A stretch of 64,000 nt of DNA from an uncultured Actinomycetota bacterium (GTDB taxonomy: Bacteria; Actinomycetota; Actinomycetes; Propionibacteriales; Nocardioidaceae), in assembly GCA_963833975.1 (NCBI GenBank), contig CAWIAB010000004.1, positions 434,586 to 498,585 of the forward strand, written 5' to 3'. This document shows, in pieces, positions 1,255 to 61,817 of the stretch (its first letter is position 1; each line of letters opens with the position of its first letter). A program made the position numbers and the translations under genes. The notes below the pieces were generated by a model. It worked only from the letters and a program-made list of their open reading frames with translations, searched no databases and was not told the DNA's origin.

Positions 1255-2169
1255 TCAGAAGAGGGCGGCAGTGAGTGCTCGCCTGGCCTTGCCGACACGC
1301 GCGTCGGCATCGCCGACGACCGAGAACAGGTCTAGGAGATGCTTGCGCGCGGCGTCGCGATCGCCCTCGCTGGTGCGTCGGATCAGGTCGATCATCCGGG
1401 CGAAGGCGTCGTCGACATGACCACCGAGCAGGTCGAGGTCGGCTACCAGGCTCTGTGCCGCCACGTCATCAGGCGTGGCCGCTGCGGCGGCGCGGGCCGC
1501 TGCCTGGTCGACGCCGATGGTGCGCTTCAGCATCTTCGCCCTGGCCAGTCCCTCCTGCGCCTCGGCGTCGCCTGGAAGCTTCGCGAGCTCCGCCTCGTAC
1601 TGGGCGATCGCCTCGTCCAGGTCACCGCGAAGCAGGGCATCCTCGGCGGCCGGGAACCTGGCTGGCGGCTCCTCGGGCGCGGCTTGGTCGACGGCGGGCG
1701 CGACCGGCTCCGCCGTACCCGTGATGCCGTTGGCCGCCGCGGCCTGCAGGATCTGCTGGATCACTGCCCGCATCTCTGCTTCGGGCAGCACCTCCTGGAA
1801 GAGCGGCGCCAGCTGACCTCGCAACGCGGCCGCCACGAGCGGAACGCTCGGGATCCCGATGGCCGCCACCAGAGTGGCGTTCGCCTGCGCATCCAGGGTG
1901 GCCAGCAGAAACCGACCGCCGAACTCAGTGGCGAGCTTCGTCAGAGTCTCGTTGATCTGAACTGACTCGGGGACGTCCGGTGACCAGACGCTGAGCAGCA
2001 CGACCACCGACATGGAGCGCTCGACGACATCGATGCTGAGCGACTCCTCGCCCGTGACCTCCACCACGAACGTCCCGCCGCCGCCACCGCCCGCGCCGGG
2101 ACGCGCCTGGGTGGGGCGGAACGCGGACAGGTCGACCGCGCCCGGCCTCGAGAACTGCGGAGTCGTCAT
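1255..2169 (-). CDS. thioredoxin-domain plus TPR co-chaperone (YbbN/CnoX-like)
   Basis: Intact 304-aa ORF. It has an N-terminal thioredoxin-like region without a CxxC motif and a C-terminal TPR-like region (LLRGDLDEAIAQYEAELAKLPGDAEAQEGLARA...). Its ATG overlaps the stop of the upstream gene (ATGA at 2166-2169). Confidence 0.8.
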   Translation of the reverse strand: MTTPQFSRPGAVDLSAFRPTQARPGAGGGGGGTFVVEVTGEESLSIDVVERSMSVVVLLSVWSPDVPESVQINETLTKLATEFGGRFLLATLDAQANATLVAAIGIPSVPLVAAALRGQLAPLFQEVLPEAEMRAVIQQILQAAAANGITGTAEPVAPAVDQAAPEEPPARFPAAEDALLRGDLDEAIAQYEAELAKLPGDAEAQEGLARAKMLKRTIGVDQAAARAAAAATPDDVAAQSLVADLDLLGGHVDDAFARMIDLIRRTSEGDRDAARKHLLDLFSVVGDADARVGKARRALTAALF

Positions 2170-4128
2170 GGCTTCATCTTAGTGTTCGCTTTCCGTCGGG
2201 TCGGCGGCGTGCCGCGAACGGGTCGGTAGTGGTCGAAGGTGCACTCGAGCACCGCTTCACCGCGAGTAAGCGCTGGGAGCCTTTCCTGCAGCTTCGGCAC
2301 GGCGGTTGCGGGGATCTCGCCCGCCAGCCGGTACGAGGAACCTCTCAGCTCCGGCGTTCCTGGCACCGCTCGCAGCAGGGAGAGGACGGGCAGCACAGGT
2401 CCCAGCGCCTGGTGGGGAATCTCCAGCTGGAAACGGTGGATCGGCTCACACACGCAGGTCCCGGCCCGCTTCAGGGCCGCCGCGACAACCAGTCGTCGTC
2501 ACAGCGCGGAAGTCGTCGGCCGTGCTCGACATCGCCTTGTCGAAGTGGGCGTGGGTATGGCTCTGGCGGGCGGCATAGCCGGAGCTCACGATCGTCACCC
2601 GGCAGTCGATGACCTGCCATCCGTAGCGACCGGAGCGTAGTGCCAGCGGGATGGTCTCCTCGATGGCCGTGAGAAACGCGCGCGTGAGTGCCCCTCGCTC
2701 GATCTCGAGCTGCACGGTGATCCCTGAACCCTCAGCCGCCGGCTCGACCCGGAGCCCAACGCCGGCGAGGTATGGCCGCTCTGGCGTGCGCCCGCTCGGC
2801 AGCAGCTCGATGGCCGTACCGGAACCGACCGGCCGCTCGACGCAGATCGTCGTCGACTCGAGGAAGTCGACCTGTACATCGAAGTCCTCGGCCAGCGTGT
2901 CGCGGATGACCTCCTTCTGCACCTCGCCGTACAGGGAGACGATCGTCTCGCCCGAACCCTCGATCTCACGGAGGTTGATCAGCGGGTCTTGTTCCGCGAG
3001 CTGCGTGAGCGCGAGATGGAGGCCTGCCCTGTCGGCAGTGTTACGAGGGACCACCACCGTCTCCAGGGTCGGTGGAGCGAACCGATAGCCGTTCGACCCG
3101 GGCGGCGCCATCCCGATCATGTCACCGATCTGGACGTCCCCGAGGCCCCAGACCTTGCCGATCCGACCAGCCGCAAGGGTTTCACGCGGGGTCGCCGTCC
3201 CGCGCTCGAAGACGCTGATCCCGGTGACCTTGCGTCGGTGGTTCCCACCCACCAGCAGCCGGTCCCGCGTTCGCAGGGTGCCCGCGAACAAGCGCACGTA
3301 GGCGATCCGCTCTCCCGACGCGCCGCGGTCGATCTTGAAGACCGTTCCCGAGGGGTCGGCATCGACGTTGCCCTCGACGGCAGGCAGCAGGCCGGCGATA
3401 CCGGTCATCAGCGAGTCCACCCCCGCCCCGGTGATTGCCGAACCGAGGTAGACCGGATGCACCAGCGCCCGCCGAGTCTGGTCCCTCAGTTCCTCGCACA
3501 GGCGTGGGTGCGACATCGCCGGCTCGTCGCCCAGGTACGTGGCCAGGAAGGCATCGTCGTGGTCGGCGAGCAGATCGACCAGCCGGGACCTGGCGTTTCG
3601 GTCCGCTCGCGCCGTACGGCGAGAACCGCAGCGTGTCGCGAGCCGAGGCCGCTCACGGATCCCATCACGACCGGAGCCAGTCCCAGCTTGTCCACGACAT
3701 CGGAGACGACTCGCTCGTCGTTCGCGCCTCGCCGGTCGATCTTGTTCACGAACACCAGGGTGGGCACGCGCAGCCGCCGCAACGCACGCACCAGCACCCG
3801 AGTCTGGGCCTGGACGCCTTCCACAGCAGAGATGACGAGGACGGCGCCGTCGAGCACACCGAGCACCCGCTCCACCTCGGCGATGAAGTCCGGGTGCCCG
3901 GGCGTATCGATCAGGTTGACGGTCACGTCGTCGATGACGAAGGAGACGACGGCGGACTTGATCGTGATGCCGCGTCGTCGTTCCAGGACCAACGTGTCGG
4001 CCTGCGTGGTGCCGTCATCGACGCTGCCGACCTCGTCGATGACCCCGGCGGCATAGAGCAGCCGCTCGGTCAGAGCTGGTTTTACCGGCGTCTACATGCG
4101 CCAGAATCCCCAGGTTGAGCGTTCGCAT
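2166..4128 (-). pseudogene. Tet(M)/OtrA-type ribosomal-protection GTPase (EF-G family), interrupted by four 1-nt insertions
   Basis: ATG at 4128 gives MRTLNLGILAHVDAGKTS, then a frame break at about 4074 before LTERLLYAAGVIDEVGSVDDGTTQADTLVLERRRGITIK...NLIDTPGHPDFIAEV...NKIDRRGA (G1-G4 motifs). Further breaks are at about 3638, 3607 and 2493. Length 1963 nt = 653 codons + 4. Pieces appear in ORFs 3486..3992, 2446..3516 and 2166..2453. Confidence 0.8.
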
Positions 4129-7818: not shown

Positions 7819-10800
7819 CTATCGGGCGTTCTCGCGGAGACTGGCGGTTCGGGCTCCCCGGACGGTCAGCCCCGCCACCGTGACCGCGACCACCAGCAGG
7901 GCCGCCGTCACCAGCACCAACAGGCCGGTGACGCTGCCCAGGTTGAGTGACGGCAGCAGTCGCGGGGTGTGCTCCGTGTCGGCATACCCCAGCGTGACGG
8001 TGCGCACAACGACATACTGCGCCAGTGAGCCCGCCGCGACTCCGGCCAGTGCAGCGGCTCCGAGCACGACGACGAACTCGGCGACCACGGCCGCGATGAT
8101 CGAACGCCGACGCAGACCCACAACACGCAGCGATGCTGCGTCCCGCCGCCGGGCCGGCATCTGTACGGCGAGGTTGGCGCCGAGGCCCGCCAGCGCGAGC
8201 AGGATCACGATGACCGTGACGACGAGGTAGAGGTTCAGCGCCAGCGCGAAGGCGTCCTGGTCGAGCAGGCCGCGAGTCGTCGACAGCTGTCTGCGGACGG
8301 CTGATTCCGTTGTCCGCAAGGGCAGCTGACCACGGAGCTCGGGGTGTCGGAGCGGGCCAGGATCGTCACGAACGTGATCGAGTCGTCGATCGTCCACGTC
8401 GCGCGAGAGCATCGTGTAGTCGATCAGCATCCCGGCAGGGCCGAGCACCGGCATCGACTCGGCGGTCGCGACCGGATGGACGTCGAGTGTCGCGAACGCA
8501 CCCTGCAGACGGAGGTCATCGCCGGTCGCGCCGGACCACCTTGGGATGGGCGTCCGCCCGATGACCACCGGTCGGACGGCCGGAACGTCGCCGGGCGTGA
8601 TGGCCGCGAACGAGTCGGAGCTCTTGGCGTCGAACCTCACCACGAGACCGTCACCGCTCACCCGCGGCACCCCGGCCACGCCGACCGGCGTGTTGAGCAG
8701 CGGCGTGGCGACCCGCCAGGACTGGTCGATCGCCGCCGGGACGGCGGTTCCGTCGACGTCGAACGCGGTCACCGTGGCCTGCCCGTGCATCGCCTCGCGG
8801 TAGCCGCCGGGACCGCCGAAGGCCAGCTGCGTCACCAGACAGCCGGCCGTGCAGCCGGGCAGCCGGGCCGAGACCGTCGAGACCCCCTGGGCGAAGGGCC
8901 GACCACGACACTGGTCCTCGGCCCGTTCGCGCTGCACGATCGCCAGGGTCGCGGCGAGCTCCGGCGGAGTCGCCCGTGACCGGGTTGTCGATCGTGAGCG
9001 ACACCCGCGACCCGGTGAGCTCGAACGCTCTGTCGGTGCACCGACAGCTCGGCTGCGAGATGTCGGCCGCCGACGAGCCCGGCGTCCAGCTGTTCGGCCA
9101 TAGGCCGACCCGAGGCAGCCGCGGGGTGTCCATGATCAGCGTCTGGTTGTCCGCCGTCGTACTCGGCGCCGATCGCCATCAGCCACCTGCCGTCCGGGTC
9201 GATCTGGTGGGTCAGGGCGACGGCCTGGTCCATGCTGAGCTGGGTGCTGTAGGAGACGTCGGCTCCGACCAGCGTCGCCGCGTCGCTCGCCCGCCAGTCG
9301 GCGGCGGCCGTGAAGACGCCGGCCGCGAACACCGAGACCGCGAGCGCCGCGGTGAGCGGCAGGATCACCAGCGTGCCCTCGCGTCGCCGCGAGATCGTCC
9401 GCGACGCGAGGTAGGCGAAGACGCCGCGTCGCTCGCCGGTCCAGCGCGGCCCAGGAGCGGGCGAGCGCCTGCGCCGCGAAGGTGGTGATGAGCCCGGCGG
9501 CGACGGCGAGCAGGATCGGCAGGGCGAGGTCGGTGGCGTCCGGGCTCGACTTCTTCGACGACGCCAGCGTGGCCACCAGGACGGTCAGAGCGCGCGCGCG
9601 ACCAGGACGAGCTGCAGCAGCAGGCCCCAGCGGCCGGACCGGCCGGGCCGCCGTACCCCGGCGATCTGGGCGCTCAGCGGCTCGCTGACGGAGTCTCGCA
9701 CGACGAACGCCGCCACCACGAGGGTCGCGACGACGACCGCCGAGCATGGCCAGCAGACTGGCGGGCCCGAGCGGCATCGGCAGCCCCGGGACGAGCCAGA
9801 CGCCGGCCAGCGCCCGAGCGCTCAGGTAACCCGCCGACGATGCCGATCGGGGTGGCGATGGCCAGCATGAGGACCGGCTCCAGCAGCCCGAGCACCCACA
9901 TCTGCCGGCGGGAGAAGCCGCGGAGCGACGCGAGCGCGAGCTCCGGACCGCCGGAGCTCCATGGCTGCCGACAGCAGCCGGAGCAGCAGCACGAGCGCGA
10001 CCAGGATGACCGAGACCACAGCCGGAGCGACGGTGCTGCGCGCGGTCGCGCGCCGCTCCTGCACCTCGCTCTGGCGACGCCAACAGCGCGTTCCCGAACT
10101 CGGGGGTGAGCGTCCCCGGCCGGAGCGGCCGGGAACCGCCTGCTGGTCCGCCTCGAGGGCAGCGACCGCTCCGGTCGCCCGCTGCAGGTCCGCGAGCGTC
10201 GTCTCCGGGGTGACGGTCGAGCCGCCGGGTCGCCCGGACGAACCACGAGCCCCGTGGCCATCGTCTGGAACGTCTCGGGAGTGACGAGCAGCGGGGCGGG
10301 ATGGTACGGCGCCGAGCGCGTCTCCACTGCCACTTGGTTGCGGCGGCACGCTCTCGAGGTCGCTGCAGGTTGAACCAGTAAGTTCTCGTCGGTCGCGCGC
10401 GGTGCGTAGGTCCCCACGATGGTGATCGGGCGTGTGCAGGCCCTCGAGCTTGACCGACTGACCGATCTTGAGCGGTGCGTATGTGCTGTCCTGCTTGAGG
10501 ATCAGCGCCTCGCCGACCTTGCTCGGGCATCGACCGACCAGGTGGACGTGGGCGCACTGGCCGGGGGCCGAGACCAGGTTGGCGGCACCGTCGTGTCCGG
10601 GGAAGCCGTTGAACCGTTGGCTCCAAGTGGCGATCGTCGCCGGGGCGAACTGGTCGTTCAGCTCGCGGTCAGCCAGACTCCGGGCCGAGGACAGCTGCTC
10701 GGCGTAGGTGTCCTCCGGATCGAGGGTCGGCCGGTAGTCGAAGACGACACCCGTCAGGAAGTTCGGCTCCGACTGGAGCTTGGTCACCAGGTAGGACGAC

Positions 10801-27721: not shown

Positions 27722-28393
27722 GTGCGTCTCGTCATCGCCCGTTGCCAGGTCGACTACGCCGGACGGCTCACGGCGCACCTGCCGATGGCCATCCGGCTCC
27801 TGATCGTGAAGGCCGACGGGTCGGTGCTCGTGCACTCCGACGGGGGGTCGTACAAGCCCTTGAACTGGATGTCTCCTCCGTGCACCTTGATCGAGGGTCA
27901 TACGGAGGACGGCGCCGTCGAGTGGGTCGTCGAGGCCAAGGGCGGCGACACGCTCCGCATCCTGGTCGAGGAGGTGCTCAGCGACACGTCGTACGAGCTC
28001 GGCATCGATCCGGGGCTGCAGAAGGACGGTGTCGAGAAGCACCTGCAGGAGCTGCTCGCGGAGCATCCCGTGCGGTTGGGTGTGGGGCTCTCGCTGGTAC
28101 GCCGCGAGTACCCGACGGCCATCGGACCGGTGGACCTGCTGTGCCGCGACGAGGCCGGATCGGTCGCGGTCGAGATCAAGCGCCGCGGCGAGATCGACGG
28201 GGTCGAGCAGCTGACCCGCTACCTCGACCTGCTCAACCGCGACCCCCTGCTGGCCCCGGTACGAGGCATCTTCGCCGCCCAGGAGATCAAGCCACAGGCC
28301 CGCACCCTCGCCGCCGACCGCGGGATCGCCTGCATAGTGGTCGACTACGACGAGCTCCGCGGCATGGACGACCCCACCGCACGCCTCTTCTAG
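27722..28393 (+). CDS. nucS: endonuclease NucS (EndoMS)
   Basis: Intact 223-aa ORF from GTG: [21 protein letters not shown]...SYKPLNWM...[15 protein letters not shown]...[24 protein letters not shown]. Confidence 0.9.
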
Positions 28394-28396
28394 CCC

Positions 28397-28417
28397 GTTG
28401 CGTGGTCACGTCGGTCC
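28397..28417 (+). repeat. solitary copy (E1) of the 22-bp GTTGAG...CCGGTCC repeat family, 3 nt after the nucS stop
   Basis: GTTGCGTGGTCACGTCGGTCC. 18/19 identical to 28912..28930 (14-nt perfect core GTGGTCACGTCGGT). About 15/21 identical to the array-unit sense form GTTGAGATGCCACTCCGGTCC. Confidence 0.55.
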
Positions 28418-28469
28418 GGTCCTGCCAGGTTGAAGCGTCACTTCCGTCCACTCTCTGACCGTCGAGGTG

Positions 28470-28871
28470 TCAGTTCGGTACGGCATGGCGCTGGACGAGC
28501 TCGATCGGGTTGCCGTCGAGATCCGCGACCCAGGCCACCCGCAGCGAGCCCTGGAGCCAGTCGTGCGGCTCGGACATCGAGAGGGCCCCCGCCGCCAGCA
28601 GCTCGGCGTAGGCGTGGTCGACGTCCTCGGTCCATAGACAGATCTCCATGGCGTTGCCGTCGGGCGACACGTCCAACCCATGGTCGGACCGCGCGGAAGC
28701 GACGTTCGCGATCCCCAGACAGAACCCGTCGAGACGCAGCTCGACGTGGATGGGCGAGCCTTCTCGAGGGGTCCGGAAGGACTCCTCGAACCCCAATCCG
28801 GTATAGAACGTCACAGACCGCTCGACATCGTCGACGTACATGTTGACCTGGGGACGGTGAAACGGTGCCAC
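28470..28871 (-). CDS. VOC family (glyoxalase/bleomycin-resistance fold) protein
   Basis: GTG at 28871 within ORF 28470..28961: VAPFHRPQVNMYVDDVERSVTFYTGLGFEESF...VAWVADLDGNPIELVQ. Confidence 0.7.
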   Translation of the reverse strand: MAPFHRPQVNMYVDDVERSVTFYTGLGFEESFRTPREGSPIHVELRLDGFCLGIANVASARSDHGLDVSPDGNAMEICLWTEDVDHAYAELLAAGALSMSEPHDWLQGSLRVAWVADLDGNPIELVQRHAVPN

Positions 28872-28911: not shown

Positions 28912-28963
28912 GTTGAGTGGTCACGTCGGTGCAGCAATGAGGGACCGGAGTGACCACTCAACC
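28912..28963. repeat. inverted pair (E2/E3) of the 22-bp repeat family forming a 12-bp-stem hairpin, 6 nt after the stop of the 28970..29869 gene
   Basis: Arms TTGAGTGGTCAC (28913..28924) and GTGACCACTCAA (28950..28961) with a 25-nt spacer. E3 (28942..28963, GGACCGGAGTGACCACTCAACC) is 19/22 to 20/22 identical to units of the 40.1-kb array. Confidence 0.65.
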
Positions 28964-28969
28964 TTAGGG

Positions 28970-29869
28970 TCAGAAGTCGCCGCCGCCGAAGTCGCCACCG
29001 CCGTCGAAACCACCGCCGTCGAAACCACCCCCGTCGAACCCGCCGCCATCGAAACCGCCGCCGTCATAGCCACTACCGTCGCCGCCGGACCCGCTGTCGT
29101 CGTACCCGCCCTGGTCCGAGCCCTGGTCCGAGCCTTGGTCGGAGCCGGCGTCATAACCCGCGTCGTAGCCCTGGTCGTATCCACCTCCGCCGTCGAACAG
29201 CCCACCCATCATGGTGCCGACGAACAACAGCTCCAACGGGAAGAACGCACCGAAATATCCCGCGGTCCACGGCTGGAAAGCCGGTCCTGCCTGCCAGTAC
29301 GGCACCCGCTGGGGCCCCACCATGACCTGGCGGGTCATCGGCTCCGCGCCCGAGGCAATTCGCTCCGCGTCGGCCGCGCAGACCGGCACCTCGCGTGGCG
29401 CCCCGCCCTCGGGCGACCAGGTGATGTCCTTGACCGAGGGACCGTGTTGGGGGTTGAAGAAGCAGGGCGAGCGACGTTGCGGAATCGGCTCGCCGGCTAC
29501 CCGGGCACGCACGCAGGTGACCGAGTATCGGCCATCCTCCAGGATCTCGGTGACGTGGCGGATCTGGTCGGGACGGGTGACGGCGGCGACCGACTCCTTG
29601 GCGGCCTCGTAGCCGTCCAGCGCGCGTTGATAGTCCTGCCTGGCGGTCGCATCGAGCTCGTGCCCCGCCAGGTCGACGTCCAGCTGACGGAGGTCGTCAC
29701 CGAACACCGTGACGTCCTCGTCCGCGGCCCTCTTGACCGCCTCGAGCTGCTCGGCAGAGATCCGCTCCCGCCGCTCCGCAGCCTCCCGGCTGGCGGTCCG
29801 CCCGCGAGACACGGCGCTGGCAATCCCGATGAGGGCGACGACGACCACCACCAGTAGTACCCAGATCAA
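28970..29869 (-). CDS. membrane-anchored protein with Gly/Asp-rich repetitive C-terminus
   Basis: Intact 299-aa ORF (TTG start). N-terminal TM MIWVLLVVVVVALIGIASAV, a second TM near the C-terminus, then (GGGFD)x4. Function unknown. Confidence 0.65.
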   Translation of the reverse strand: MIWVLLVVVVVALIGIASAVSRGRTASREAAERRERISAEQLEAVKRAADEDVTVFGDDLRQLDVDLAGHELDATARQDYQRALDGYEAAKESVAAVTRPDQIRHVTEILEDGRYSVTCVRARVAGEPIPQRRSPCFFNPQHGPSVKDITWSPEGGAPREVPVCAADAERIASGAEPMTRQVMVGPQRVPYWQAGPAFQPWTAGYFGAFFPLELLFVGTMMGGLFDGGGGYDQGYDAGYDAGSDQGSDQGSDQGGYDDSGSGGDGSGYDGGGFDGGGFDGGGFDGGGFDGGGDFGGGDF

Positions 29870-36540: not shown

Positions 36541-36561
36541 CGCTCCACGATAGGCGTTTCA

Positions 36562-37401
36562 CTACGACAACGAATGCGTTCTTCGTGCACCCGCTGCTGA
36601 ACCAACCAGCCCCGCAGACATCGACAGTACCGGCACGAGTAGGAGAAGCATCATGCCCGTTCCGAGACTGTCGTTGACCGCGTAGGTCGCGAGGTCGGAG
36701 GCCCCGCTTGTCTTGAAGTCGCGCAGCATCCCGGCGTCGTAGGGCCGTCCGCCGGTAGCCACCGTCGCACCCGTCCAGAGCAGGAACAGCGCGAACCCAG
36801 CGATGAGGGAGGTGAGACCCACGCAGCCGATGCCTGCACCGGGGGCGGTCGACCGTCTCGTCGCCACCCAGCCGACAACAAGAGAGATGAGCGGGCCGAG
36901 CGCGAGCAGCACCATGTCCAGCGTGGCCGATCCGCCCAATGATGAGTCCAAACCCAATGCAAGCCACGAGGCCGCGATGCCCACACCCCCAACCACCGCT
37001 ATCAGCGCAAGGAAGTCGTCCTGCTGCCGAGCACCGAGATTGACGGCGCACGCGACGTACACCACGAGCAGCACGACGAAGATGGCGATCGCGACCCACG
37101 TTCGTGCTCCGGAAACAATGCCCGGGTAGCGGACCAGACCAACCGTGACGACCGCCATGCTGCCTGCCGCGGCGGCCCAAGCCCCCGCTGTGACTGCTCG
37201 CTGCGAGCCTCGAGGAGGTACGGCAAAAGCGATGGAGCGAACGCAACCGAGGGCGAATACCCACCGTGCACGACGGCCTTGCAGCTGTGTGAGCTCAACC
37301 TGCATGGCACGACCCCAATCCGGTCTGTTCGCACCGAAAGCAAAGACGCACGCGTTGAGCATCAGCATCGGCAGGTCTCGACTCTCGCCCGTGACCCTCA
37401 T
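36562..37401 (-). CDS. polytopic membrane protein, partner of the PadR regulator
   Basis: Intact 279-aa ORF with at least 6 hydrophobic segments. Its start overlaps the PadR stop (37398..37401). Confidence 0.6.
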   Translation of the reverse strand: MRVTGESRDLPMLMLNACVFAFGANRPDWGRAMQVELTQLQGRRARWVFALGCVRSIAFAVPPRGSQRAVTAGAWAAAAGSMAVVTVGLVRYPGIVSGARTWVAIAIFVVLLVVYVACAVNLGARQQDDFLALIAVVGGVGIAASWLALGLDSSLGGSATLDMVLLALGPLISLVVGWVATRRSTAPGAGIGCVGLTSLIAGFALFLLWTGATVATGGRPYDAGMLRDFKTSGASDLATYAVNDSLGTGMMLLLLVPVLSMSAGLVGSAAGARRTHSLS

Positions 37402-37706
37402 ACCGGCCCCAGCTGCGCGCGACGCGTAGTCTCCCGCCTCGCCTCGTGACCGACTGCACCGGCCTCGTTCATACCTGCCTCAGTCAGGCGATACAGATGA
37501 CGGGGCGGCCTCCCCGGGTCAGCCGGCTCCCAGGACGACTCCAGCAGGCCACGGTCCGCCAGCCGGATGAGGATGGGATACAGGGAGCCCGATTTCAGCC
37601 CCAGCTCGACGCACAGGTCATAGCCATAACGCCATCGTGTCTGATCAGCGGCGAGCGCGTGGAGAAGCACGACGGTTTGAGTGGAGTGGCCGCGGCGACG
37701 CTGCAT
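37398..37706 (-). CDS. PadR family transcriptional regulator
   Basis: Intact 102-aa ORF: VLLHALAADQTRWRYGYDLCVELGLKSGSLYPILIRLADRGLLES. Confidence 0.85.
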   Translation of the reverse strand: MQRRRGHSTQTVVLLHALAADQTRWRYGYDLCVELGLKSGSLYPILIRLADRGLLESSWEPADPGRPPRHLYRLTEAGMNEAGAVGHEARRETTRRAQLGPV

Positions 37707-37712
37707 GCACTA

Positions 37713-37729
37713 ACTCTACTCATGTAGAG
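37713..37729 (-). promoter_or_regulatory. candidate leaderless padR promoter (-10 TAGAGT) overlapped by an inverted repeat CTCTAC-N4-GTAGAG
   Basis: On the sense strand, TAGAGT ends 6 nt before the padR ATG (37706). The 16-bp inverted repeat spans 37714..37729. Confidence 0.4.
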
Positions 37730-37770
37730 ATAGCGTGGCAAGGAAACAGTGCGTTCGTGCGCCCCTCGGA

Positions 37771-39000
37771 CTACAGCTCGGTCAGGCGGCGTTGCAACAG
37801 GCGTCGCTCAGGCTGCCCGGAGGGAGCAAGATGGAGCGCCTCGAGATAGGCGTCTCGCGCCTCATCGGTCAAGCCCAGCCGGCGTAGGAAGTCTGCACGC
37901 GCAGCCGGCAGCAGGTAGTAGCCGGCGAGCGCGGTGGCATCCAGCGCGTCAAGCTCAGCCAGGCCGGCGTTGAAGCCATCGCGGAACCCGACGGCGATGG
38001 CCCGGTTCAAGGCGATCACGGGTGACGGTTGGGTCGCGTAGAGAGCGTCGTACAGGCTGACGATCGTGCGCCAGTCAGTGACCTCAGCCTTCGGCGCCCC
38101 GACATGGCAGGCAGCAATCTGGGCCTGGAGTCGGTAGGGTCCGGGCGGTCGTCCCGAGCGAGCCGCTCGATACAGGTCACGCCGCCCGGCCTCGATGAGG
38201 GACGCATCCCAGCGGCCGCGGTCCTGCTCCTCCATCGGGACAAGGTCGCCGCGGGCATCGAACCGGGTCGAGCGCCGAGCCAGCTGCAACGTGACCAACG
38301 CCAACAGTCCGAGAGCCTCGTCCTCACGGGGCATCAGGTCGACCAGCAACCGGGTCAGCTCCAGCGCCTCGCCCGCGAGCTGGTCGTCGTACTGGCCATA
38401 GCCCTGGTTGAAGATCAGATAGAGCACGATCAGCACGCCGGCAGTGCGCTCGGGGAGCAGCTCCTCGGGTGGCACCCGATACGGGATGGCTGCGTTGGAG
38501 ATCTTTCGCTTGGTCCGCAACAGGCGTTGCGACATGGTGGCCTCGGAAACCAGGAACGCGCGGGCGATCTCGGCGGTGCTCAGGCCGCCCACCGTCTTCA
38601 GCGTCAACGCCACCCGACCCTCGAGGGCGAGTGCCGGATGACAGCAGGTGAAGATCAACCGCAGCCGGTCATCGGTCCCAGGCGCATCCTCGTCTGCAGC
38701 ACCCCGGGCAGCCTCATCCAAGATCGCTCGCTGCTGGAGCTTTGCACGTTCGGTCGTGCGGCGACGCAGGACGTCGAGTGCCCGGTTCCTGGCTACTGTC
38801 GTGAGCCAGGCCGCCGGTGACCGCGGCACCCCGTCACCGGGCCAGACCATGAGGGCCTTCTCGACCGCATCCTGCACGCAGTCCTCGGCCAGGTCCCAGT
38901 CGCCAGTGAGCCTGATCAGGGTCGCGACCATGCTGGCGCGTTCCGCTGCCACGGCCGAGGCTGCTGCCTCGGCCGTGGCCTGGTGTGCGTCCGTGGTCAA
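37771..39000 (-). CDS. ECF-type sigma-70 factor with long C-terminal TPR-like extension (ECF42-like)
   Basis: Intact 409-aa ORF with sigma region 2 (DLAEDCVQDAVEKAL...WLTTVARNRALDVLRR) and region 4 (LSTAEIARAFLVSEATMSQRLLRTKRKI), plus about 220 extra C-terminal residues. Confidence 0.8.
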   Translation of the reverse strand: MTTDAHQATAEAAASAVAAERASMVATLIRLTGDWDLAEDCVQDAVEKALMVWPGDGVPRSPAAWLTTVARNRALDVLRRRTTERAKLQQRAILDEAARGAADEDAPGTDDRLRLIFTCCHPALALEGRVALTLKTVGGLSTAEIARAFLVSEATMSQRLLRTKRKISNAAIPYRVPPEELLPERTAGVLIVLYLIFNQGYGQYDDQLAGEALELTRLLVDLMPREDEALGLLALVTLQLARRSTRFDARGDLVPMEEQDRGRWDASLIEAGRRDLYRAARSGRPPGPYRLQAQIAACHVGAPKAEVTDWRTIVSLYDALYATQPSPVIALNRAIAVGFRDGFNAGLAELDALDATALAGYYLLPAARADFLRRLGLTDEARDAYLEALHLAPSGQPERRLLQRRLTEL

Positions 39001-39341
39001 TCCTCGTCAGTCCAGAACGGACGGATCTCGAGCTTCCCGCCGTTGGCTTGCGGGTGCCGTGCAGCGATCTCGATGGCTTCGTCCAAGTTGTCGCACTCCA
39101 AGATGTCGAAGCCGGCGATCCACTCTTTCGACTCGGTGAACGGGCCATCGGTGACCAGCACCTGCCCTCGGCTGATCCTGACCGTGGTGGCGTCGCTGAC
39201 TGGACGTAGCCGGTCGCCGGTGAGGCGTTTCCCCCGACCGTCGACATCATCCAGCCACTGCTCGATGGTCAGCTCATCGGCTATCGGCTCTGCCTCGGCA
39301 GCCGCCGCGGGGTCGGAAACGACGAACATCATGTATTTCAT
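38997..39341 (-). CDS. YciI/DGPF family protein
   Basis: Intact 114-aa ORF; AGGAG lies 8 nt before the ATG. The stop overlaps the sigma-factor start. Sequence MKYMMFVV...DGPFTESKEWIAGFDILECDNLDEAIEIA. Confidence 0.8.
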   Translation of the reverse strand: MKYMMFVVSDPAAAAEAEPIADELTIEQWLDDVDGRGKRLTGDRLRPVSDATTVRISRGQVLVTDGPFTESKEWIAGFDILECDNLDEAIEIAARHPQANGGKLEIRPFWTDED

Positions 39342-39380
39342 GGGTTTGCACTCCTGGCTAGGTTGTCTTGACGAAGATAC

Positions 39381-39408
39381 GACGATCGGGAGACGTACGG
39401 ATCCGACA
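39381..39408 (-). promoter_or_regulatory. ECF-type promoter-like motif TGTCGGAT-N16-CGTC upstream of the yciI-sigma operon
   Basis: Sense strand: TGTCGGAT (39408..39401), a 16-nt spacer, then CGTC (39384..39381), 40 nt before the ATG at 39341. Motif assignment is from memory of ECF autoregulated promoters, so confidence is low. Confidence 0.3.
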
Positions 39409-39434
39409 CGTCGGGTCAGCAGAATCCATGACGA

Positions 39435-39926
39435 CTACAGCACCACCCATTGACGGCCGTCGATCAGCTCTCGTACGGCGTCGAGATGTCCGGCGTGTAC
39501 GGCGGTCTCGGTGATCACATGCATCATCACCGAGCGCAGATCCGGGAACTCCATGCCCCAGCTGGCCCATTCTGGATCGGGCCGCTTCGGAGCGGCGTCC
39601 ATGGCCGTCACCGCCAGGATCTCGTCGGCGCGGCGAATCTCCCCCCGGTACGCCTCTACGACTGCATCGGCGGGCTCGTCCGGCCCGACCAGCCAGTCGC
39701 CGTTCGGCTCCTTCGGAAAGTAGTCGAGCGATTCGCCAGCGACGACGCAGCGAAACCAGTAGTGCTCGTCTGACAACGCCAGATGCTGGACGAGGCCAAG
39801 ACAGCTCCAGCCTGAAGGGAGCACCGGTCGGCGTAGCTGCTCATCCGACAGACCCTCCAGGCTGCCGAGCACATGCCGGCGTTGCGCGTCCAGCTGCCCG
39901 CGGAGTACGGCTCTCTCGCGGCTCAC
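39435..39926 (-). CDS. DinB-family (mycothiol-transferase-like, DUF664) protein
   Basis: Intact 163-aa ORF: LDAQRRHVLGSLEGLSDEQLRRPVLPSGWSCLGLVQHLA...ETAVHAGHLDAVRELIDG. Confidence 0.8.
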   Translation of the reverse strand: MSRERAVLRGQLDAQRRHVLGSLEGLSDEQLRRPVLPSGWSCLGLVQHLALSDEHYWFRCVVAGESLDYFPKEPNGDWLVGPDEPADAVVEAYRGEIRRADEILAVTAMDAAPKRPDPEWASWGMEFPDLRSVMMHVITETAVHAGHLDAVRELIDGRQWVVL

Positions 39927-40071
39927 CGGTGAGGCTCCGTCGTACGGCGAGACGTTGGGCCTGGCCTATGCGTACCAATCGAGTCGACCATCGTGCGTCC
40001 TTCCGTTGTCAGTGTCACCTACCAATCGACGTACGGGACAGGTCCTGATCCGACAGCCGTTGCTGGAAAAC

Positions 40072-40247
40072 GGACCGAACTGGCAGCTCAACCCGGCCGG
40101 ACTGGCATCTCAACCGGACCGGAGTGGCATCTCAACCGGACCGGACTGGCATCTCAAGCGGACCGGAGTGACATCTCAACCGAACCGGAATGACATCTCA
40201 ACCGGACCGGAGTGACATCTCAACCGGAGCCGGACTGGCAGCTCAAT
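40072..40247. repeat. tandem array of eight 22-bp units (consensus + strand GGACCGGACTGGCATCTCAACC)
   Basis: Units at 40072, 40094, 40116, 40138, 40160, 40182, 40204 and 40226, read directly. Variants are TGGCAT / TGACAT / TGGCAG. It overlaps the 3' end of the meaA-like ORF. Confidence 0.9.
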
Positions 40248-42251
40248 CCGGGGCAGGGAGTGGAAGAGGCGGATGATGTTGGTGATCTGGGCGATGATCG
40301 CGGTCAGCCCGAAGTCCTTGGGGGTGAAGACCGCAGCGACGCCCGACGCGATGAGCTGGGCAGCGTCCGCGGCCGGCACGATCCCACCCACCACGACCGG
40401 GATCTCGCCCGCGCCGGCCTCCCGCAGACCTCTCACGATCGCCGGCACCAGCTCCAGATGTGAGCCCGAGAGGATCGAGATCCCGACGCAGTGCACATCC
40501 TCTGCGACTGCGGCCGCCACGATCTCCTCCGGGGTCAACCGGATCCCTTGGTAGATGACCTCGAAGCCGGCGTCTCTGGCCCGGACCGCGACCTGCTCTG
40601 CCCCATTGCTGTGACCGTCCAGCCCGGGCTTGGCGACGAGCAACCGCAGCCGACCCCCGAGCTGTTCACCGGTCTCGCGCACCAGGCTCCTGAGCGCCGT
40701 CAGCTCGGCTCCCGCACCCGGCGCAGTGACGACACCACCTACCCCGGTCGGTGCGCGGTACTCGCCGAACACCTCGCGCAGCACACCCGCCCACTCCCCC
40801 GTCGTCGCCCCGGCTCGGGCGGCCGCGATGGTGGCGGGCATCAGGTTCTCCGCGGTCTTTGCCTGTTCGCGAAGCCGGTCGAGCGCCGTTGCGACGGCCA
40901 CGGCGTTCCGCTCGGCGCGCCAGCGGCCGAGGGAATCCAATGCGGCGCGCTCAGCCTCCGGGTCGGACGCCTGGATCGCGGCGTCGAGGTCCACCGTCAA
41001 CGGCGAGACCTCGCTCTCCACGAACGCGTTGACACCGACCACGATGTCCTCTCCGGACTCGATGCGCGCCAGACGGAGTGCGTGTGATGCCACGAGCGCC
41101 TGCTTGAGGTAGCCGGACTCGACCGCCGCGACCGCTCCGCCCATCGCCTGGATCCGGTCCATCTCGGCGGTGATGGCCTGCACCAGCTCGGCGACCTTCG
41201 CCTCGACCACGCGTGACCCGTCGAAGAGATCGTCGTACTCGAGCAGGTCGGACTCGAAGGCCAGCACCTGCTGAAGGCGCAGGGACCATTGCTGGTCCCA
41301 GGGGCGGGGCAGTCCGAGGGCCTCGTTCCAGGCCGGGAGCTGCACGGCTCGGGCGCGGGCCTCTTTCGACAGGGTCACGCCGAGCATCTCGAGGACGATG
41401 CGCTGGACGTTGTTCTCCGGCTGAGCCTCCGTGAGACCCAGGGAGTTCACCTGCACGCCGTAGCGGAACCGGCGTTGCTTCGTATCCTCGATGCCGTAAC
41501 GCTCACGGGTGAGGCTGTCCCACAGCACCGCGAACGCGCGCATCTTGCACATCTCTTCGACGAAACGCACCCCTGCGTTGACGAAGAACGACATCCGCCC
41601 GACCACCTCGCCGAACCGCGCGGTCGGCACCTGCCCCGAGTCGCGAACGGCATCCAGGACGGCGATCGCCGTGCACAACGCGAAGGCCACCTCCTGGACC
41701 GGCGTCGCGCCAGCCTCCTGTAGGTGGTAGCTACAGACGTTGATGGGGTTCCACTGCGGCATCTCCGCCACGGTGTAGGTGATCAGATCCGTCGTCAGCC
41801 GAAGTGACGCCTCCGGGGGGAATACATACGTCCCCCGCGAGAGGTACTCCTTGATGATGTCGTTCTGGGTCGTCCCGGTCAGCAGCCGCGGGTCGGCGCC
41901 CTGCTCCTGCGCCACGATCTGGTAGAGCGCCAGCAGCCACATCGCGGTGGCGTTGATCGTCATGGACGTGTTCGTCTCGGCGAGCGGGATCGAGTCGAAG
42001 AGCCGGCGCATCTCCCCGAGGTGCGGTATCGGCACACCGACCCTGCCTACCTCGCCGCGAGCCAGTGGCGAGTCGGGGTCGTAGCCGGTCTGTGTCGGCA
42101 GGTCGAATGCGACCGAGAGACCGGTCTGACCCTTTGCGAGGTTGCCCCGGTACAGCGTGTTCGAGCCTTGCGCGGAGCTGTGGCCGGCGTAGGTGCGCAT
42201 CACCCACGGCTGGTCACGCTGTGCCGCTTTCGGCTGCGGTTCCGCGGTCAT
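40176..42251 (-). CDS. ecm: ethylmalonyl-CoA mutase-type (MeaA/Ecm) B12-dependent acyl-CoA mutase, fused catalytic and B12-binding domains
   Basis: Intact 691-aa ORF. PWVMRTYAGHSSAQGSNTLYRGNLAKGQTGLSVAFDLPTQTGYDPDSPLARGEVGRVGVP...NTSMTINATAMWLLALY closely matches MeaA as I recall it. The C-terminal DxHxxG B12 motif (GLDGHSNG) is present. The last roughly 24 codons and the stop are encoded by the repeat array. Confidence 0.85.
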   Translation of the reverse strand: MTAEPQPKAAQRDQPWVMRTYAGHSSAQGSNTLYRGNLAKGQTGLSVAFDLPTQTGYDPDSPLARGEVGRVGVPIPHLGEMRRLFDSIPLAETNTSMTINATAMWLLALYQIVAQEQGADPRLLTGTTQNDIIKEYLSRGTYVFPPEASLRLTTDLITYTVAEMPQWNPINVCSYHLQEAGATPVQEVAFALCTAIAVLDAVRDSGQVPTARFGEVVGRMSFFVNAGVRFVEEMCKMRAFAVLWDSLTRERYGIEDTKQRRFRYGVQVNSLGLTEAQPENNVQRIVLEMLGVTLSKEARARAVQLPAWNEALGLPRPWDQQWSLRLQQVLAFESDLLEYDDLFDGSRVVEAKVAELVQAITAEMDRIQAMGGAVAAVESGYLKQALVASHALRLARIESGEDIVVGVNAFVESEVSPLTVDLDAAIQASDPEAERAALDSLGRWRAERNAVAVATALDRLREQAKTAENLMPATIAAARAGATTGEWAGVLREVFGEYRAPTGVGGVVTAPGAGAELTALRSLVRETGEQLGGRLRLLVAKPGLDGHSNGAEQVAVRARDAGFEVIYQGIRLTPEEIVAAAVAEDVHCVGISILSGSHLELVPAIVRGLREAGAGEIPVVVGGIVPAADAAQLIASGVAAVFTPKDFGLTAIIAQITNIIRLFHSLPRIELPVRLRLRCHSGPVEMSFRFG

Positions 42252-42329
42252 ACCCGGACTGTACGGCGTGATCAGGCGTGGCCGACGACGATGTCGACGG
42301 GATCACACCCGCTGAATCGTTCCCTGGTC

Positions 42330-42647
42330 TCAGGCGGAGAGACTGACGTGACCTCGGTCGAGGTGCAGGATCCGGTTGAGCCGGGTGACGGCCAGGACGC
42401 GTCGAATCTCGCGCGGGCAGTTGAGCAGCACCAGTCGATGACCGGCTCGTTCGCAGCGTAGGTGGACGGCCGTGAGCATGCCCAGACCGGCAGCGTCGAT
42501 CGACTCCAGATTGGCCATGTCGAGCACGACATCGCCGGCGCCGTCCTCGATGACCGAGTACAACGTCGCACGCGCGCTACCAACCGTGCGCACGTCGAGA
42601 TGCGCTCCGAGCTTGACCATGTTGCTGGTCGTGGAGCTGACCACCAT
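42330..42647 (-). CDS. STAS-domain anti-sigma-factor antagonist
   Basis: ATG at 42647 follows GGGGAGG (within ORF 42330..42737): MVVSSTTSNMVKLGAHLDVRTVGSARATLYSVIEDGAGDVVLDMANLESIDAAGLGMLT. Confidence 0.75.
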   Translation of the reverse strand: MVVSSTTSNMVKLGAHLDVRTVGSARATLYSVIEDGAGDVVLDMANLESIDAAGLGMLTAVHLRCERAGHRLVLLNCPREIRRVLAVTRLNRILHLDRGHVSLSA

Positions 42648-43074
42648 GTCGCCTCCCCGCCGAAGGTTTTTCTGTGCGCTATGTCCATGAGACGCACGGT
42701 CGACGCCAAAGGTTGCCGTCGACAGCCAGTTCGTCACCGAATCGTTGTCATTCGTCTCACCATGATGAGGATCAGGCTAGGTCTCAGATACAGCGCAGAG
42801 GCGGACATGACGGCACGACGGCGTGTCGTACGTCACACAAGACTCCGCTTCACGAGGCCAAGCGATCCCATCGACAGCCGGGCAAAGGATGAATTTCGGC
42901 TAGGCTCGGCGACTGAGACCGTTCCTCACTGCCGCCATCCGCACGGGACGAAGGATGGCCCTGCGTCTGCCCACACTGTCGCTCGCATACCGATCCGACT
43001 TATATTCACTCCATCCGACAAGCGCAAGCGACCTCAGGGCATGTCAAAACAAACCATTGAAGGGGTAACCGTCA

Positions 43075-44229
43075 ATGTGGAATCACCTGAAGAACGTCGT
43101 GCGGGGATCGGCGTTGCTCCTTGCTGGGCTGACGCTGACGGCTGGGCCCGGAGCCGCCTCGACGGAAGCTCACGCTTCGGAGGTCTCCACTATTCCTGGG
43201 TCCCTCGAGGGTGTCACCGCTGTCTCGGCCACCGACGTGTGGGCCGTCGGCTATCACGACGACACGAAGGCCCTGATCGAGCACAACGATGGGACAGGCT
43301 GGACTCGCGTGCCCAGTGCCCATCCGCAGGCCGCGAACAGATTGAGTGGCGTGGCGGCGGTTGCGGCCACGGACATCTGGGCGGTCGGCTGGTCCGGTAT
43401 CGCAAGCAGCCATTGGCGCACCTTGATCGAACACTGGAACGGGACCACCTGGTCACGGGTGCGGAGTGCCACCCCGGAGTCAGCTACTCAGGCGAGGCTG
43501 ACCGGGGTAAGCGCGACGTCCGCTAGTGACGCCTGGGCAGTTGGCTACTACTTCACCGAAGGGTTCAGGGTTAAGACGATCATCGAGCACTGGGACGGTG
43601 CCGCGTGGGACATTCTCAGAAGTCCGAATCCGGGCAAAGACAACTATCTTAACTCGGTGTACGCCTTCTCTCCGACCGACGTGTGGGCCGTGGGAAGTCA
43701 GTATCGTCAGGGATACCACACGTTCACAACGCATTGGGACGGCACAAACTGGAGCGTCGTCCCCAGCCCTGACAAGCGCTCCCAGAACTCCCTCGCAGGA
43801 GTGAGTGGGACCTCCAGTTCCGATGTATGGGCGGTGGGTTCCGCCAGTGGCGGGGAGGCGCTCAACGGTAAAGCCATGGCCGAAGACTCGGCTTTGGCCG
43901 GACGACCCGCCCAGACCCTCATAGAGCATTGGGATGGCAGCGCGTGGTCCCTCGTACCTAGCCCGAACCCGGGCGACTCCGACCGCGCACTCGCAAGCGT
44001 GAGCGCGGGTTCGGTCTCGGAGGCCTGGGCCGTTGGACACTACGCCGGGGGGCGTCACGTGTGTCTGCACTGGGATGGGTCCGCCTGGAAGCAGACGAAG
44101 TCTCCATTGCCACCCGATGGGTTCGACCAGCTGCAGGGTGTGACTACCCTGTCCCCGACCAATGCCTGGGCGGTCGGCAGCTCGGGACAAACACAGCATT
44201 GGGATGGGACCGGCTGGACGTCGCCGTAG
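43075..44229 (+). CDS. secreted beta-propeller-like repeat protein
   Basis: ATG at 43075 follows GAAGGGG; a signal peptide is present. Seven or eight repeats of the type DVWAVG...LIEHWDGTxWSxVPSP. G+C is visibly lower than in neighbouring genes. Confidence 0.7.
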   Translation: MWNHLKNVVRGSALLLAGLTLTAGPGAASTEAHASEVSTIPGSLEGVTAVSATDVWAVGYHDDTKALIEHNDGTGWTRVPSAHPQAANRLSGVAAVAATDIWAVGWSGIASSHWRTLIEHWNGTTWSRVRSATPESATQARLTGVSATSASDAWAVGYYFTEGFRVKTIIEHWDGAAWDILRSPNPGKDNYLNSVYAFSPTDVWAVGSQYRQGYHTFTTHWDGTNWSVVPSPDKRSQNSLAGVSGTSSSDVWAVGSASGGEALNGKAMAEDSALAGRPAQTLIEHWDGSAWSLVPSPNPGDSDRALASVSAGSVSEAWAVGHYAGGRHVCLHWDGSAWKQTKSPLPPDGFDQLQGVTTLSPTNAWAVGSSGQTQHWDGTGWTSP

Positions 44230-44340
44230 ACCCACGACCACCTGCTGCATGCGCCTGCCCTAGGCGGGTCGGTGAGCACGACCTTGGGGACGCGGTCGCC
44301 ATCGCCGAGTGCCGCCTGCGAGTGACAGGTCGACCATCGA

Positions 44341-60976: not shown

Positions 60977-61126
60977 GGGTGTTCCTCTCGAGTATCGGCC
61001 GCTGGGTCGCCACCACCGAGTCAGCGGGACGTGAACCAGAACCATCGGAGATTGTGCCACTCCTACCCCCTCCAAGCCCAAATCCCCTGCCAATATTCCC
61101 TCCCGCCGAGTCCCCCTCCACCCCCC

Positions 61127-61334
61127 GTTGAGATGCCACTCCGATCGTGTTGAGATGCCACTCCGGACGTGTTGAAATGCCGATCCAGTTGGCATCTCAA
61201 CCGGACCGGACTGGCATCTCAACCAGACCGGACTGGCATCTCAACCAGACCGGACTGGCATCTCAACCAGACCGGACTGGCATCTCAACCAGACCGGACT
61301 GGCATCTCAACCGGACCGGACTGGCATCTCAACG
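61127..61334. repeat. bipartite array of the 22-bp repeat: about 3 inverted units followed by 7 direct units
   Basis: Inverted units: 61127..61148, 61149..61170 and 61171..61188 (GTTGAGATGCCACTCCG...). Direct units: a partial unit at 61189..61202, then 61203, 61225, 61247, 61269, 61291 and 61313 (each 22 bp). The four at 61225..61312 are identical (AGACCGGACTGGCATCTCAACC). The last unit supplies the gpx stop codon. Confidence 0.9.
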
Positions 61335-61817
61335 AGGGACAGGGAGGAGGGACTCGATGGTGGAGGTGAGGTCGGCGGGCTCGGTGGAGGGACCGCTGCG
61401 TTGGACGACCTGGCCGGCGGGGTCGACGAGGAACTTGGTGAAGTTCCACTCGATGGCCTCACCCGAGTCGGCCGAGGCCTGGCTACGCAGCCAGGAGAAC
61501 AGCGGATGCGCATCCTCGCCATTGACCTCGACCTTGGCGAACATCGGGAACTCGACGCCGTACGTCAGCGAGCAGAACTCCTGGATCTCGGCCTCAGAAC
61601 CCGGCTCCTGGTGACCGAACTGGTCGCACGGGAAGCCCAGCACGACGAGGCCGCGGTCGGCGTACTTCTCGTGGAGCTGCTCGAGCCCCTCGTACTGCGG
61701 AGTCATCCCGCACTTGCTGGCCGTGTTGACCACCAGCATGACCTTGCCCTGGTAGTCCGACAGCGGTTGCTCGGCTCCGTCGATCGTCGTGGCGGTGAAG
61801 TCGTAGGCGGTGGTCAC
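61329..61817 (-). CDS. glutathione peroxidase
   Basis: GTG at 61817 within ORF 61329..62090: VTTAYDFTATTIDGAEQPLSDYQGKVMLVVNTASKCGMTPQYEGLEQLHEKY...GFPCDQFGHQEPG...WNFTKFLVD. Confidence 0.85.
   Translation of the reverse strand: MTTAYDFTATTIDGAEQPLSDYQGKVMLVVNTASKCGMTPQYEGLEQLHEKYADRGLVVLGFPCDQFGHQEPGSEAEIQEFCSLTYGVEFPMFAKVEVNGEDAHPLFSWLRSQASADSGEAIEWNFTKFLVDPAGQVVQRSGPSTEPADLTSTIESLLPVPR

Follow-up and report, generated by a model that had tools for sequence, protein, structure and literature searches.

A 22-bp repeat array at the end of a MeaA/Ecm-type mutase gene and a stop-anchored repeat family in Nocardioidaceae

The end of the mutase gene

The window, by which we mean the whole stretch of 64,000 nucleotides analysed here from an uncultured bacterium of the Nocardioidaceae, contains on its minus strand a gene (meaA) for a B12-dependent acyl-CoA mutase whose reading frame runs into a tandem array of 22-bp units; beyond the array, in the direction of transcription, lies a gene of the mycothiol S-transferase (MST)/DinB_2 family (Table 1). 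The mutase product matches the Pfam families MM_CoA_mutase (E 7e-126) and B12-binding (E 7e-21), its frame is supported as coding by GC3, and the same 691-residue protein is called in the public annotation of the source genome (P0001). Homologues at 79-89% identity, from Nocardioidaceae, are named ethylmalonyl-CoA mutase or MeaA, and the fusion of the two domains together with the names of the orthologues places the protein in the MeaA/Ecm type, its substrate being a putative assignment read from sequence.

Table 1. Coordinates of the mutase gene, its neighbour and the members of the 22-bp repeat family in the window
Feature	Position	Strand	Basis or sequence
Degenerate three-unit member, 32-nt spacing	28397..28482	+	PWM scan
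Minimal member, one direct and one inverted unit	28912..28962	-	GTTGAGTGGTCAC...GTGACCACTCAAC; PWM scan
Next gene downstream of meaA, MST/DinB_2 family	39435..39926	-	Pfam
Eight-unit 22-bp array	40071..40251	-	Tandem Repeats Finder, core matches, unit list
Unit 8	40092-40071	-
Unit 7	40114-40093	-
Unit 6	40136-40115	-
Unit 5	40158-40137	-
Unit 4	40180-40159	-
Unit 3	40202-40181	-
Unit 2	40224-40203	-
Unit 1	40247-40225	-	ATTGAGCTGCCAGTCCGGCTCCG, 23 nt
Mutase stop codon TGA, from unit 4	40176..40178	-	Inside GTTGAGATG (GT-TGA-GATG)
MeaA/Ecm-type B12-dependent acyl-CoA mutase ORF, 691 aa	40176..42251	-	Pfam
Second member, inverted arm, 3 units	61127..61192	+	Unit list
Second member, direct arm, about 7 units (98% alike)	61190..61333	-	Tandem Repeats Finder, unit list

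The array is reported by Tandem Repeats Finder as 8.1 copies of period 22, with 86% matches and a score of 246. Allowing up to two mismatches, its core TGGCATCTCAAC is matched 19 times in the window against 3.5 expected, a count reached in none of 100 shuffles; eight of these matches form the meaA array, spaced 22 nt apart between 40081 and 40247 save for one step of 23 nt, ten fall in a second locus at 61127-61333, and the remaining one, at 30337, looks like chance. Taken with the list of units, these results confirm the original prediction of eight head-to-tail 22-bp units at the end of the mutase. On the sense (minus) strand the unit is GTTGAGATG(C/T)CA(C/G)TCCGGTCCG, and unit 1 carries one extra C, with CCGGCTCCG in place of CCGGTCCG; this single base and the exact number of units rest on one assembly. 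After ...LFHSLPR the mutase reads IELPVRLRLRCHSGPVEMSFRFG, which is to say 23 codons drawn from units 1 to 3 and the first 2 nt of unit 4, corresponding to residues 669-691. That the repeat supplies both the tail and the stop codon, as had been proposed, is supported by this reading of the frame and by the tails and loci of the orthologues described below.

Compared with its 120 best homologues, most of which end a few residues past ...IRxAHGL, the window mutase continues for 25 residues beyond the position equivalent to L666, after which an alignment of 34 orthologues has no further nearly invariant column. Alignment to solved methylmalonyl-CoA mutases covers residues 14-646 only, the last helix of the AlphaFold model spans residues 649-663, and among orthologues the C-terminus bears between 0 and about 15 extra residues. 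Mean pLDDT in the tail is 34 for residues 671-680 and 28 for residues 681-691, in an AF2 model that is moderate overall (mean pLDDT 66), which makes the disorder of the tail weak evidence. Judged from alignment and model, the tail lies beyond the conserved part of the mutase, after the last B12-binding helix and in a stretch that varies freely among orthologues; for this reason it is most likely tolerated, and the repeat-encoded residues are probably a harmless by-product.

In the window the meaA array has no inverted partner arm and folds as RNA no better than its shuffles (z -1.4). No promoter-like site was found in or beside it, and no intrinsic terminator, as a G+C-rich hairpin with a T run, was found in 39300-40500. 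A CRISPR array was rejected, since the units are contiguous, without unique spacers, and the linker of 10-11 nt is itself repeated. A Rho loading site on the sense RNA was likewise rejected, the sense strand being G-rich with C/G mostly below 1. Across the arrays at 40071-40247 and 61190-61333 in the window and those of loci L003-L007 and L015 elsewhere, sense-strand C/G runs from 0.38 to 1.04, with one array at 1.41; speculatively, an antisense transcript, or one reading through from a convergent gene, would be C-rich over most arrays, a composition that Rho prefers.

The MST/DinB_2 gene is not part of the repeat element; in L001 the array precedes a different gene. The original prediction had set the 146 nt between the array and this gene beside the 150 nt at the other array, and while both numbers are right their likeness is coincidental, because the other spacer holds an L31 leader (RF03158) and the meaA spacer measures 55 nt in L001. 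Within the spacer between the array and the MST/DinB gene stands a 10-nt direct repeat, TACCAATCGA, at 39973-39982 and 40020-40029 (47 nt apart), a candidate operator or promoter of the MST/DinB gene. The segment from the array to an FR47 acetyltransferase gene (about 36560-40070) encodes MST/DinB, YCII, an ECF sigma factor with DUF6596, PadR and a 279-residue protein of unknown kind. None of these genes passes the GC3 > 0.82 filter, unlike the flanking core genes, and the block is absent from the same position in L001 and L013; from this absence, it seems to have been inserted right after the array. On the other side of the mutase gene, the interval up to an adh_short gene (42272-44340) has a lower G+C of 0.62-0.64, and the ORFs at 42272-42709 (minus) and 42462-43526 (plus) have no Pfam match; in relatives a STAS-domain gene lies directly upstream of meaA.

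A dispersed family of 22-bp units

With the meaA array included, at least four members of the family lie in the 64-kb window, for which the weight-matrix (PWM) scan has a rate of about 0.4 false hits per 64 kb. The second member follows the glutathione peroxidase gene (gpx; Pfam GSHPx), where the first unit of the direct arm supplies the TGA stop (61331-61329, offset +2) and the whole element, 61127-61333, forms a long hairpin (fold z -13.1) just upstream of the L31 leader. This leader (L31-Actinobacteria, Rfam RF03158, 43 bits) is found at 60997-61045 on the minus strand, upstream of rpmE. The two smaller members are marked by the core variant GTTGAGTGGTCAC. The minimal one is a hairpin (fold z -3.9) situated 7 nt past the stop of gene 28970-29869(-), and the degenerate one starts 3 nt past the stop of gene 27722-28393(+), a putative nucS, its last unit overlapping the stop of the convergent gene. 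Gene 28970-29869(-) also contains 15/30-nt tandem repeats at 28983-29065, in its 3' end; these are translated into a C-terminus of GGGFD-type repeats and have no relation to the 22-bp family.

The family consensus over 22 nt is G-T-Y-G-A-G-n-T-G-c-C-n-n-T-C-C-G-g-n-n-n-g, conserved at positions 1-6, 8-11 and 14-18 (GTYGAG.TGcC..TCCGg) and variable at position 7 and the rest. Units are more alike within arrays (identity 0.90) than between them (0.73), which points to concerted evolution. Taken over positions 1-22 of the unit in all arrays, conservation shows a weak three-base period in the VEMPLR frame and is highest at second codon positions; selection on the unit at the peptide level was considered and found unconvincing (permutation p 0.11, or 0.04 with within-triplet shuffling).

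A member may be a hairpin of two units, a pair of arrays that face each other or a single direct array. The hairpin doublet is present at 28912-28962 and 61127-61333 in the window and in L005, L006, L007, L014, L015 and L017, and absent from the meaA array of the window and of L003 and from L008 5426-5469. Against shuffles, the predicted folds of double-armed members are far stronger (z -3.9 to -13, or -6.4 to -13 with the hairpin at 28912-28962 left aside), and those of single-armed ones are no better (z -1.4 for the window meaA array and -0.15 for another); no inverted repeat was found inside single units.

What the members have in common is their place. Almost always they start within about 13 nt of the upstream stop, which in eight loci outside meaA falls at -8 to +2 from the first base of the first unit, in the frame defined by GC3; the corresponding offset is +24 in three meaA orthologues and +69 in the window meaA. 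The anchoring is not absolute, a hairpin revealed by the PWM scan between rpmE and prfA in L015 being 26 nt from the stop and the array of L017 13 nt away. Upstream genes are varied, and by Pfam encode an aldehyde dehydrogenase, a P450, lumazine synthase, a LigD primase-polymerase domain, an M16 peptidase, a methyltransferase and a UbiA-family prenyltransferase. The sense of the units is that of the preceding gene, the only exceptions being the inverted arms of the gpx locus, which face a direct arm without a convergent gene, and between co-directional genes the other end of the array lies 55-150 nt from the next start. Two further ideas were tried and rejected: TTGA as an insertion target, because the native stops upstream of arrays are CTGA, GTGA or TAG, and a relay of mini-ORFs (NTG...TGA) that would couple translation across the array, because there are GTCGAG arrays without TGA and arrays also between convergent genes.

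Beyond the window, the gpx locus holds 6 direct and 6 inverted units in L015 (same sample as L004), 2.5 direct and about 3 inverted units in L014 (same contig as L001), where gpx ends ...GEMPSWSG, and a single unit 2 nt after TAA in L016. The layout of direct and inverted arms is thus kept in L015 and L014 despite the lack of a convergent gene. Immediately past its single gpx unit, the L016 contig ends in a long G-rich stretch, nearly a homopolymer (10520-10641), that is probably an assembly artefact at the repeat. A pattern scan of metagenomes yielded contigs of another organism, whose units are GTTGAGTTGCCGGTCCGGTGGG and GTCGAGTTGCCACTCCGAGCCC. In L005, L006 and L007 two arrays lie opposed between convergent genes, and unpaired arrays occur in L008 and at another site in L005. 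With a second array found in L008 by the PWM scan, L005 and L008 each carry several members per 12-14 kb. The six loci of the metagenome scan, L005-L010, are an incomplete count, the contigs of L001 and L003 matching the pattern yet not being returned, and absence from that scan is weak evidence.

An exhaustive search of representative proteins with an antisense ORF encoded in the window gave 26 weak hits, among which P0243, a spurious ORF, was the only true array; the other hits whose sequences were read proved to be unrelated repeat proteins. P0243 led to L017, in another assembly, where 3 direct and 7 inverted units lie past the stop of an alpha/beta-hydrolase gene. L017 also holds an unrelated 62-bp tandem repeat at 1966-2186 (3.6 copies, 97% identity), within a called gene (1916-2851, minus strand) for a protein that gives a ferritin-fold-like match in Pfam. 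When a consensus array was translated in antisense and searched against proteins, nothing was returned at E <= 0.001; a pattern scan of viral contigs gave no hits, and blastn of the second array (61100-61345) against plasmids and phages found no match. Strict and relaxed two-unit patterns gave no hits in a collection of 185,579 species genomes, from which the source genome is absent or in which it is masked. This last result suggests a narrow distribution, though collections are incomplete for this lineage.

Orthologous mutase loci and the age of the capture

Three orthologues of the mutase, P0002 (89% identity), P0004 and P0005, end in a repeat unit read in one frame (...PVEMPLRSG or ...PVEVPVRSG, with ...IPVEVPVRSG in P0005), and orthologues without the repeat end at about ...IRxAHGL(D/P). 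The observation that the original prediction had named as telling against it, the same tail in genomes without the repeat, was not made: all of the orthologues that share the tail carry the repeat, at loci L004, L003 and L001. Their arrays differ in length, with at least 4 units at L004, where the contig ends inside the array, 8 at L003, including a run of identical GTTGAGCTGCCGCTGCGGTCCG units unlike those of the window, and 2.5 at L001. Further relatives show less, namely one degenerate unit whose TGA is the stop in L011 (P0003), one short relic in L002 and no repeat unit at the meaA locus of L013 (P0008). In a neighbour-joining tree the eight mutases of these loci form one clade, and orthologues outside it have neither tail nor repeat.

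The flank just past the array can be aligned between the window (...GTCGGATCAGGAC...) and L003 (...GTCGGATGGGGAC...), from which it follows that the two have the distal boundary of the array in common. The gene downstream differs between relatives: the window and L003 have MST/DinB there, L001, L011 and L013 a gene for an FR47 acetyltransferase, and L002 and L012 one for an S8 peptidase, from which it follows that the array travels with the end of meaA and not with the next gene. The simplest reading of these sequences would be a single acquisition in the ancestor of the clade, followed by expansion, contraction, homogenisation and occasional decay. That the array 'rewrites' the mutase in the sense of a recent event is therefore not borne out, the tree making the capture ancestral to a clade; what is specific to the source genome is the 23-nt first unit, which skips the usual stop and adds 15 residues. 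In mechanistic terms, the meaA terminus would have acquired the element, at its edge or across it, in the ancestor of a small Nocardioidaceae clade; from then on the mutase would have finished with unit 1, translated as V-E-M-P-L-R-S-G, and taken its stop from unit 2. The extra base in unit 1 would then have shifted the frame past the TGA of unit 2, so that the ribosome reads a further two units before the stop in unit 4. Within arrays, units stay alike while their number drifts, as replication slippage or unequal exchange would lead one to expect.

Nature of the arrays and their likely consequences

The family is dispersed, clade-restricted, anchored at 3' ends, strand-locked, persistent at orthologous loci and fast-evolving in copy number. 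We consider it probable that the meaA array is one locus of this lineage-restricted, extragenic family of 22-bp repeats at gene ends, and that the capture of the tail is ancestral and a by-product. The elements probably spread and persist in the manner of REP/REPIN- or MIRU-type repeats, and their basic form may be a two-unit hairpin of which either arm can amplify head-to-tail. The double-armed hairpin is probably a terminator or insulator, or a stabiliser of the mRNA 3' end; this idea does not cover the meaA array, which has no partner arm and no predicted structure, and the single-armed array there probably has little function of its own beyond providing a robust ending to the reading frame. 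The proximity to stop codons could reflect the mechanism of insertion, or else tolerance of insertions there and selection against them elsewhere.

Considerably less likely is that a dedicated factor reads the arrays as functional cis-elements, which would be either a phased platform for DNA or RNA binding at gene ends, with two helical turns to the unit, acting as a polar roadblock to transcription or as an insulator, or a 3'-UTR element controlling mRNA fate or translation termination. The strong conservation of the core across loci and organisms beside a variable linker, the strict 22-bp phasing, the orientation locked to the upstream gene with a start within a few nt of the stop, and the persistence of arrays at the same two loci across several species are all what such an element would display; however, such a factor has no known candidate, promoter- and terminator-like sites are lacking at the meaA array, a sense strand rich in G and not in C argues against Rho loading, and the range from 1 to 8 units at one locus, with complete loss in L013, argues against a strict requirement. 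Also doubtful, in our estimation, is that the units represent an undescribed class of actinobacterial element tied to gene ends, whether by strand-specific insertion where translation stops but transcription continues (into the exposed non-template DNA behind the stop, for example) or as a 3'-end signal read by a factor. Were this true, the donation of stops and tails to housekeeping genes (meaA, gpx and a ctaB-like gene) would be a regular by-product.

The behaviour of the reading frame bears on a further possibility. The consensus unit is read GTT GAG ATG CCA CTC CGG TCC G|GT TGA, giving VEMPLRSG and a stop in the next unit, and the two other frames of a consensus array meet a stop within two further units. 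Because the GTTGAG unit carries TGA and the period is of the form 3n+1, the array stops every frame within three units, and the original prediction to this effect holds for the consensus unit. The accompanying claim, that gain or loss of a unit changes the sequence and length of the tail, fails in simulation, where deletion or duplication of any one of units 2-8 keeps 691 residues with at most 3 residue changes. Only the 23-nt unit 1 alters the length of the mutase, to 676 residues when lost, 684 when doubled and 676 when trimmed to 22 nt; in the last case the protein ends ...PRIELPVRSG, the form seen in relatives, among which the P0002 mutase also has 676 residues. Nor does the tail depend on copy number in nature, as one tail of 8 residues is common to relatives whose arrays have 2.5, at least 4 and 8 units. 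The frame enters a periodic array at a fixed phase, which makes downstream copy number irrelevant. Thus, the long tail of the source genome is the effect of a one-base insertion and not of copy number, and the array buffers the end of the reading frame instead of acting as a frame-shifting switch. A contingency (phase-variation) locus, in which slippage by 22 nt would switch the mutase C-terminus and so tune the B12-binding domain, might have been expected from a period that is not a multiple of three and from the 1 to 8 units seen between species; it becomes very improbable once whole-unit changes are seen to leave 691 residues, with unit 1 the sole exception, one tail is common to relatives with 2.5 to 8 units, and that tail is found past the last conserved helix.

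It is hardly credible that the repeat-encoded peptide is a selected, functional extension of MeaA, such as a tag or an interaction motif: a VEMPLRSG-type tail is common to several orthologues, and conservation of the unit is weakly codon-like in that frame (p = 0.04-0.11), but the nucleotide motif is also kept where it is untranslated (behind native stops, in inverted arms and in GTCGAG variants without TGA), a sister lineage and all more distant orthologues lack the tail, and model confidence in it is low. An artefact of assembly or annotation, with a collapsed or mis-assembled repeat creating a false end to the reading frame, deserves as little credence, for although such arrays interrupt short-read assemblies (the L004 contig stops within one, and contigs of 1-2 kb carry the closest gpx homologues), assemblies made independently from different samples agree on the position and boundary of the array, and the heterogeneous units here are not those of a collapsed perfect repeat.

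Seen as a family of extragenic repeats, the elements have partial counterparts elsewhere. In the papers covered, literature searches by core sequence and by description of such repeats found nothing relevant, and the family is apparently undescribed; it works most like REP/REPIN or MIRU-type repeats, yet it fails some of the defining tests of each. REP, REPIN and BIME elements are repetitive extragenic palindromes mobilised by RAYT transposases (PMC3116915; PMC3337134), with which the family shares its short, dispersed, extragenic repeats with a conserved head, the hairpin made, at some loci, by two inverted copies (28912-28962 and the gpx locus) and vertical persistence at a locus. Higher-order tandem arrangements of REPs have been reported, in arrays spaced 72-112 bp (Bertels & Rainey 2011, PMC3116915), whereas the arms here are amplified head-to-tail with a period of 22 bp. 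Furthermore, the single 22-bp unit is not itself a palindrome, the family is placed tightly against stops and oriented with the upstream gene, and the host is an actinobacterium, a group of which the REPIN literature retrieved makes no mention.

Mycobacterial interspersed repetitive units (MIRU-VNTRs), with units of about 46-101 bp as against a period of 22 here, resemble the family in their description, both being actinobacterial intergenic tandem repeats that are co-oriented with flanking genes, vary in copy number and contain reading frames meshing with neighbouring genes. For MIRUs, however, the insertion described is at the start codon, and an ORF inside the unit is coupled, at a spacing of -4, to the gene that follows (PMC12548453), whereas the present family borders on the stop of the preceding gene and leaves 55-146 nt before the next start. 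Coupling to the downstream start of the MIRU type is accordingly not seen at meaA, where the next start is 145-146 nt away in the window, 140 nt in L003 and 55 nt in L001. The iterons of plasmid origins, such as the 22-bp iterons of R6K, likewise repeat directly in a 22-bp phase, the core being conserved and the linker variable, but the arrays described here are chromosomal, stand behind housekeeping genes (flanked in this case by meaA and an MST-family gene), come without a rep gene or origin feature and, for the second array, which was the one searched, have no similarity to records in plasmid or phage collections. Rickettsia palindromic elements offer a parallel in that repeats become protein-coding and add a peptide without destroying the protein; those elements are palindromic, occur singly and are inserted within genes in frame, and in the present case the extreme C-terminus and its stop have given way to a tandem array.

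For the mutase, little changes: annotation pipelines carry as real protein a 23-residue tail that is repeat-encoded and probably unstructured, and for the enzyme this is a modest curiosity. The repeat family is moderately interesting, as a REP- or MIRU-like repeat locked to stop codons and gene orientation in a high-G+C actinobacterial lineage, which keeps its place while orthologous proteins diverge by 10-30% and has repeatedly supplied stop codons and short tails to core genes. In practical terms, the arrays break short-read assemblies and could serve as VNTR markers. If the anchoring to stops reflects mechanism and not tolerance, it would give a way into the question of how such repeats select their targets, or of how bacteria with poorly understood terminators mark the ends of their genes.
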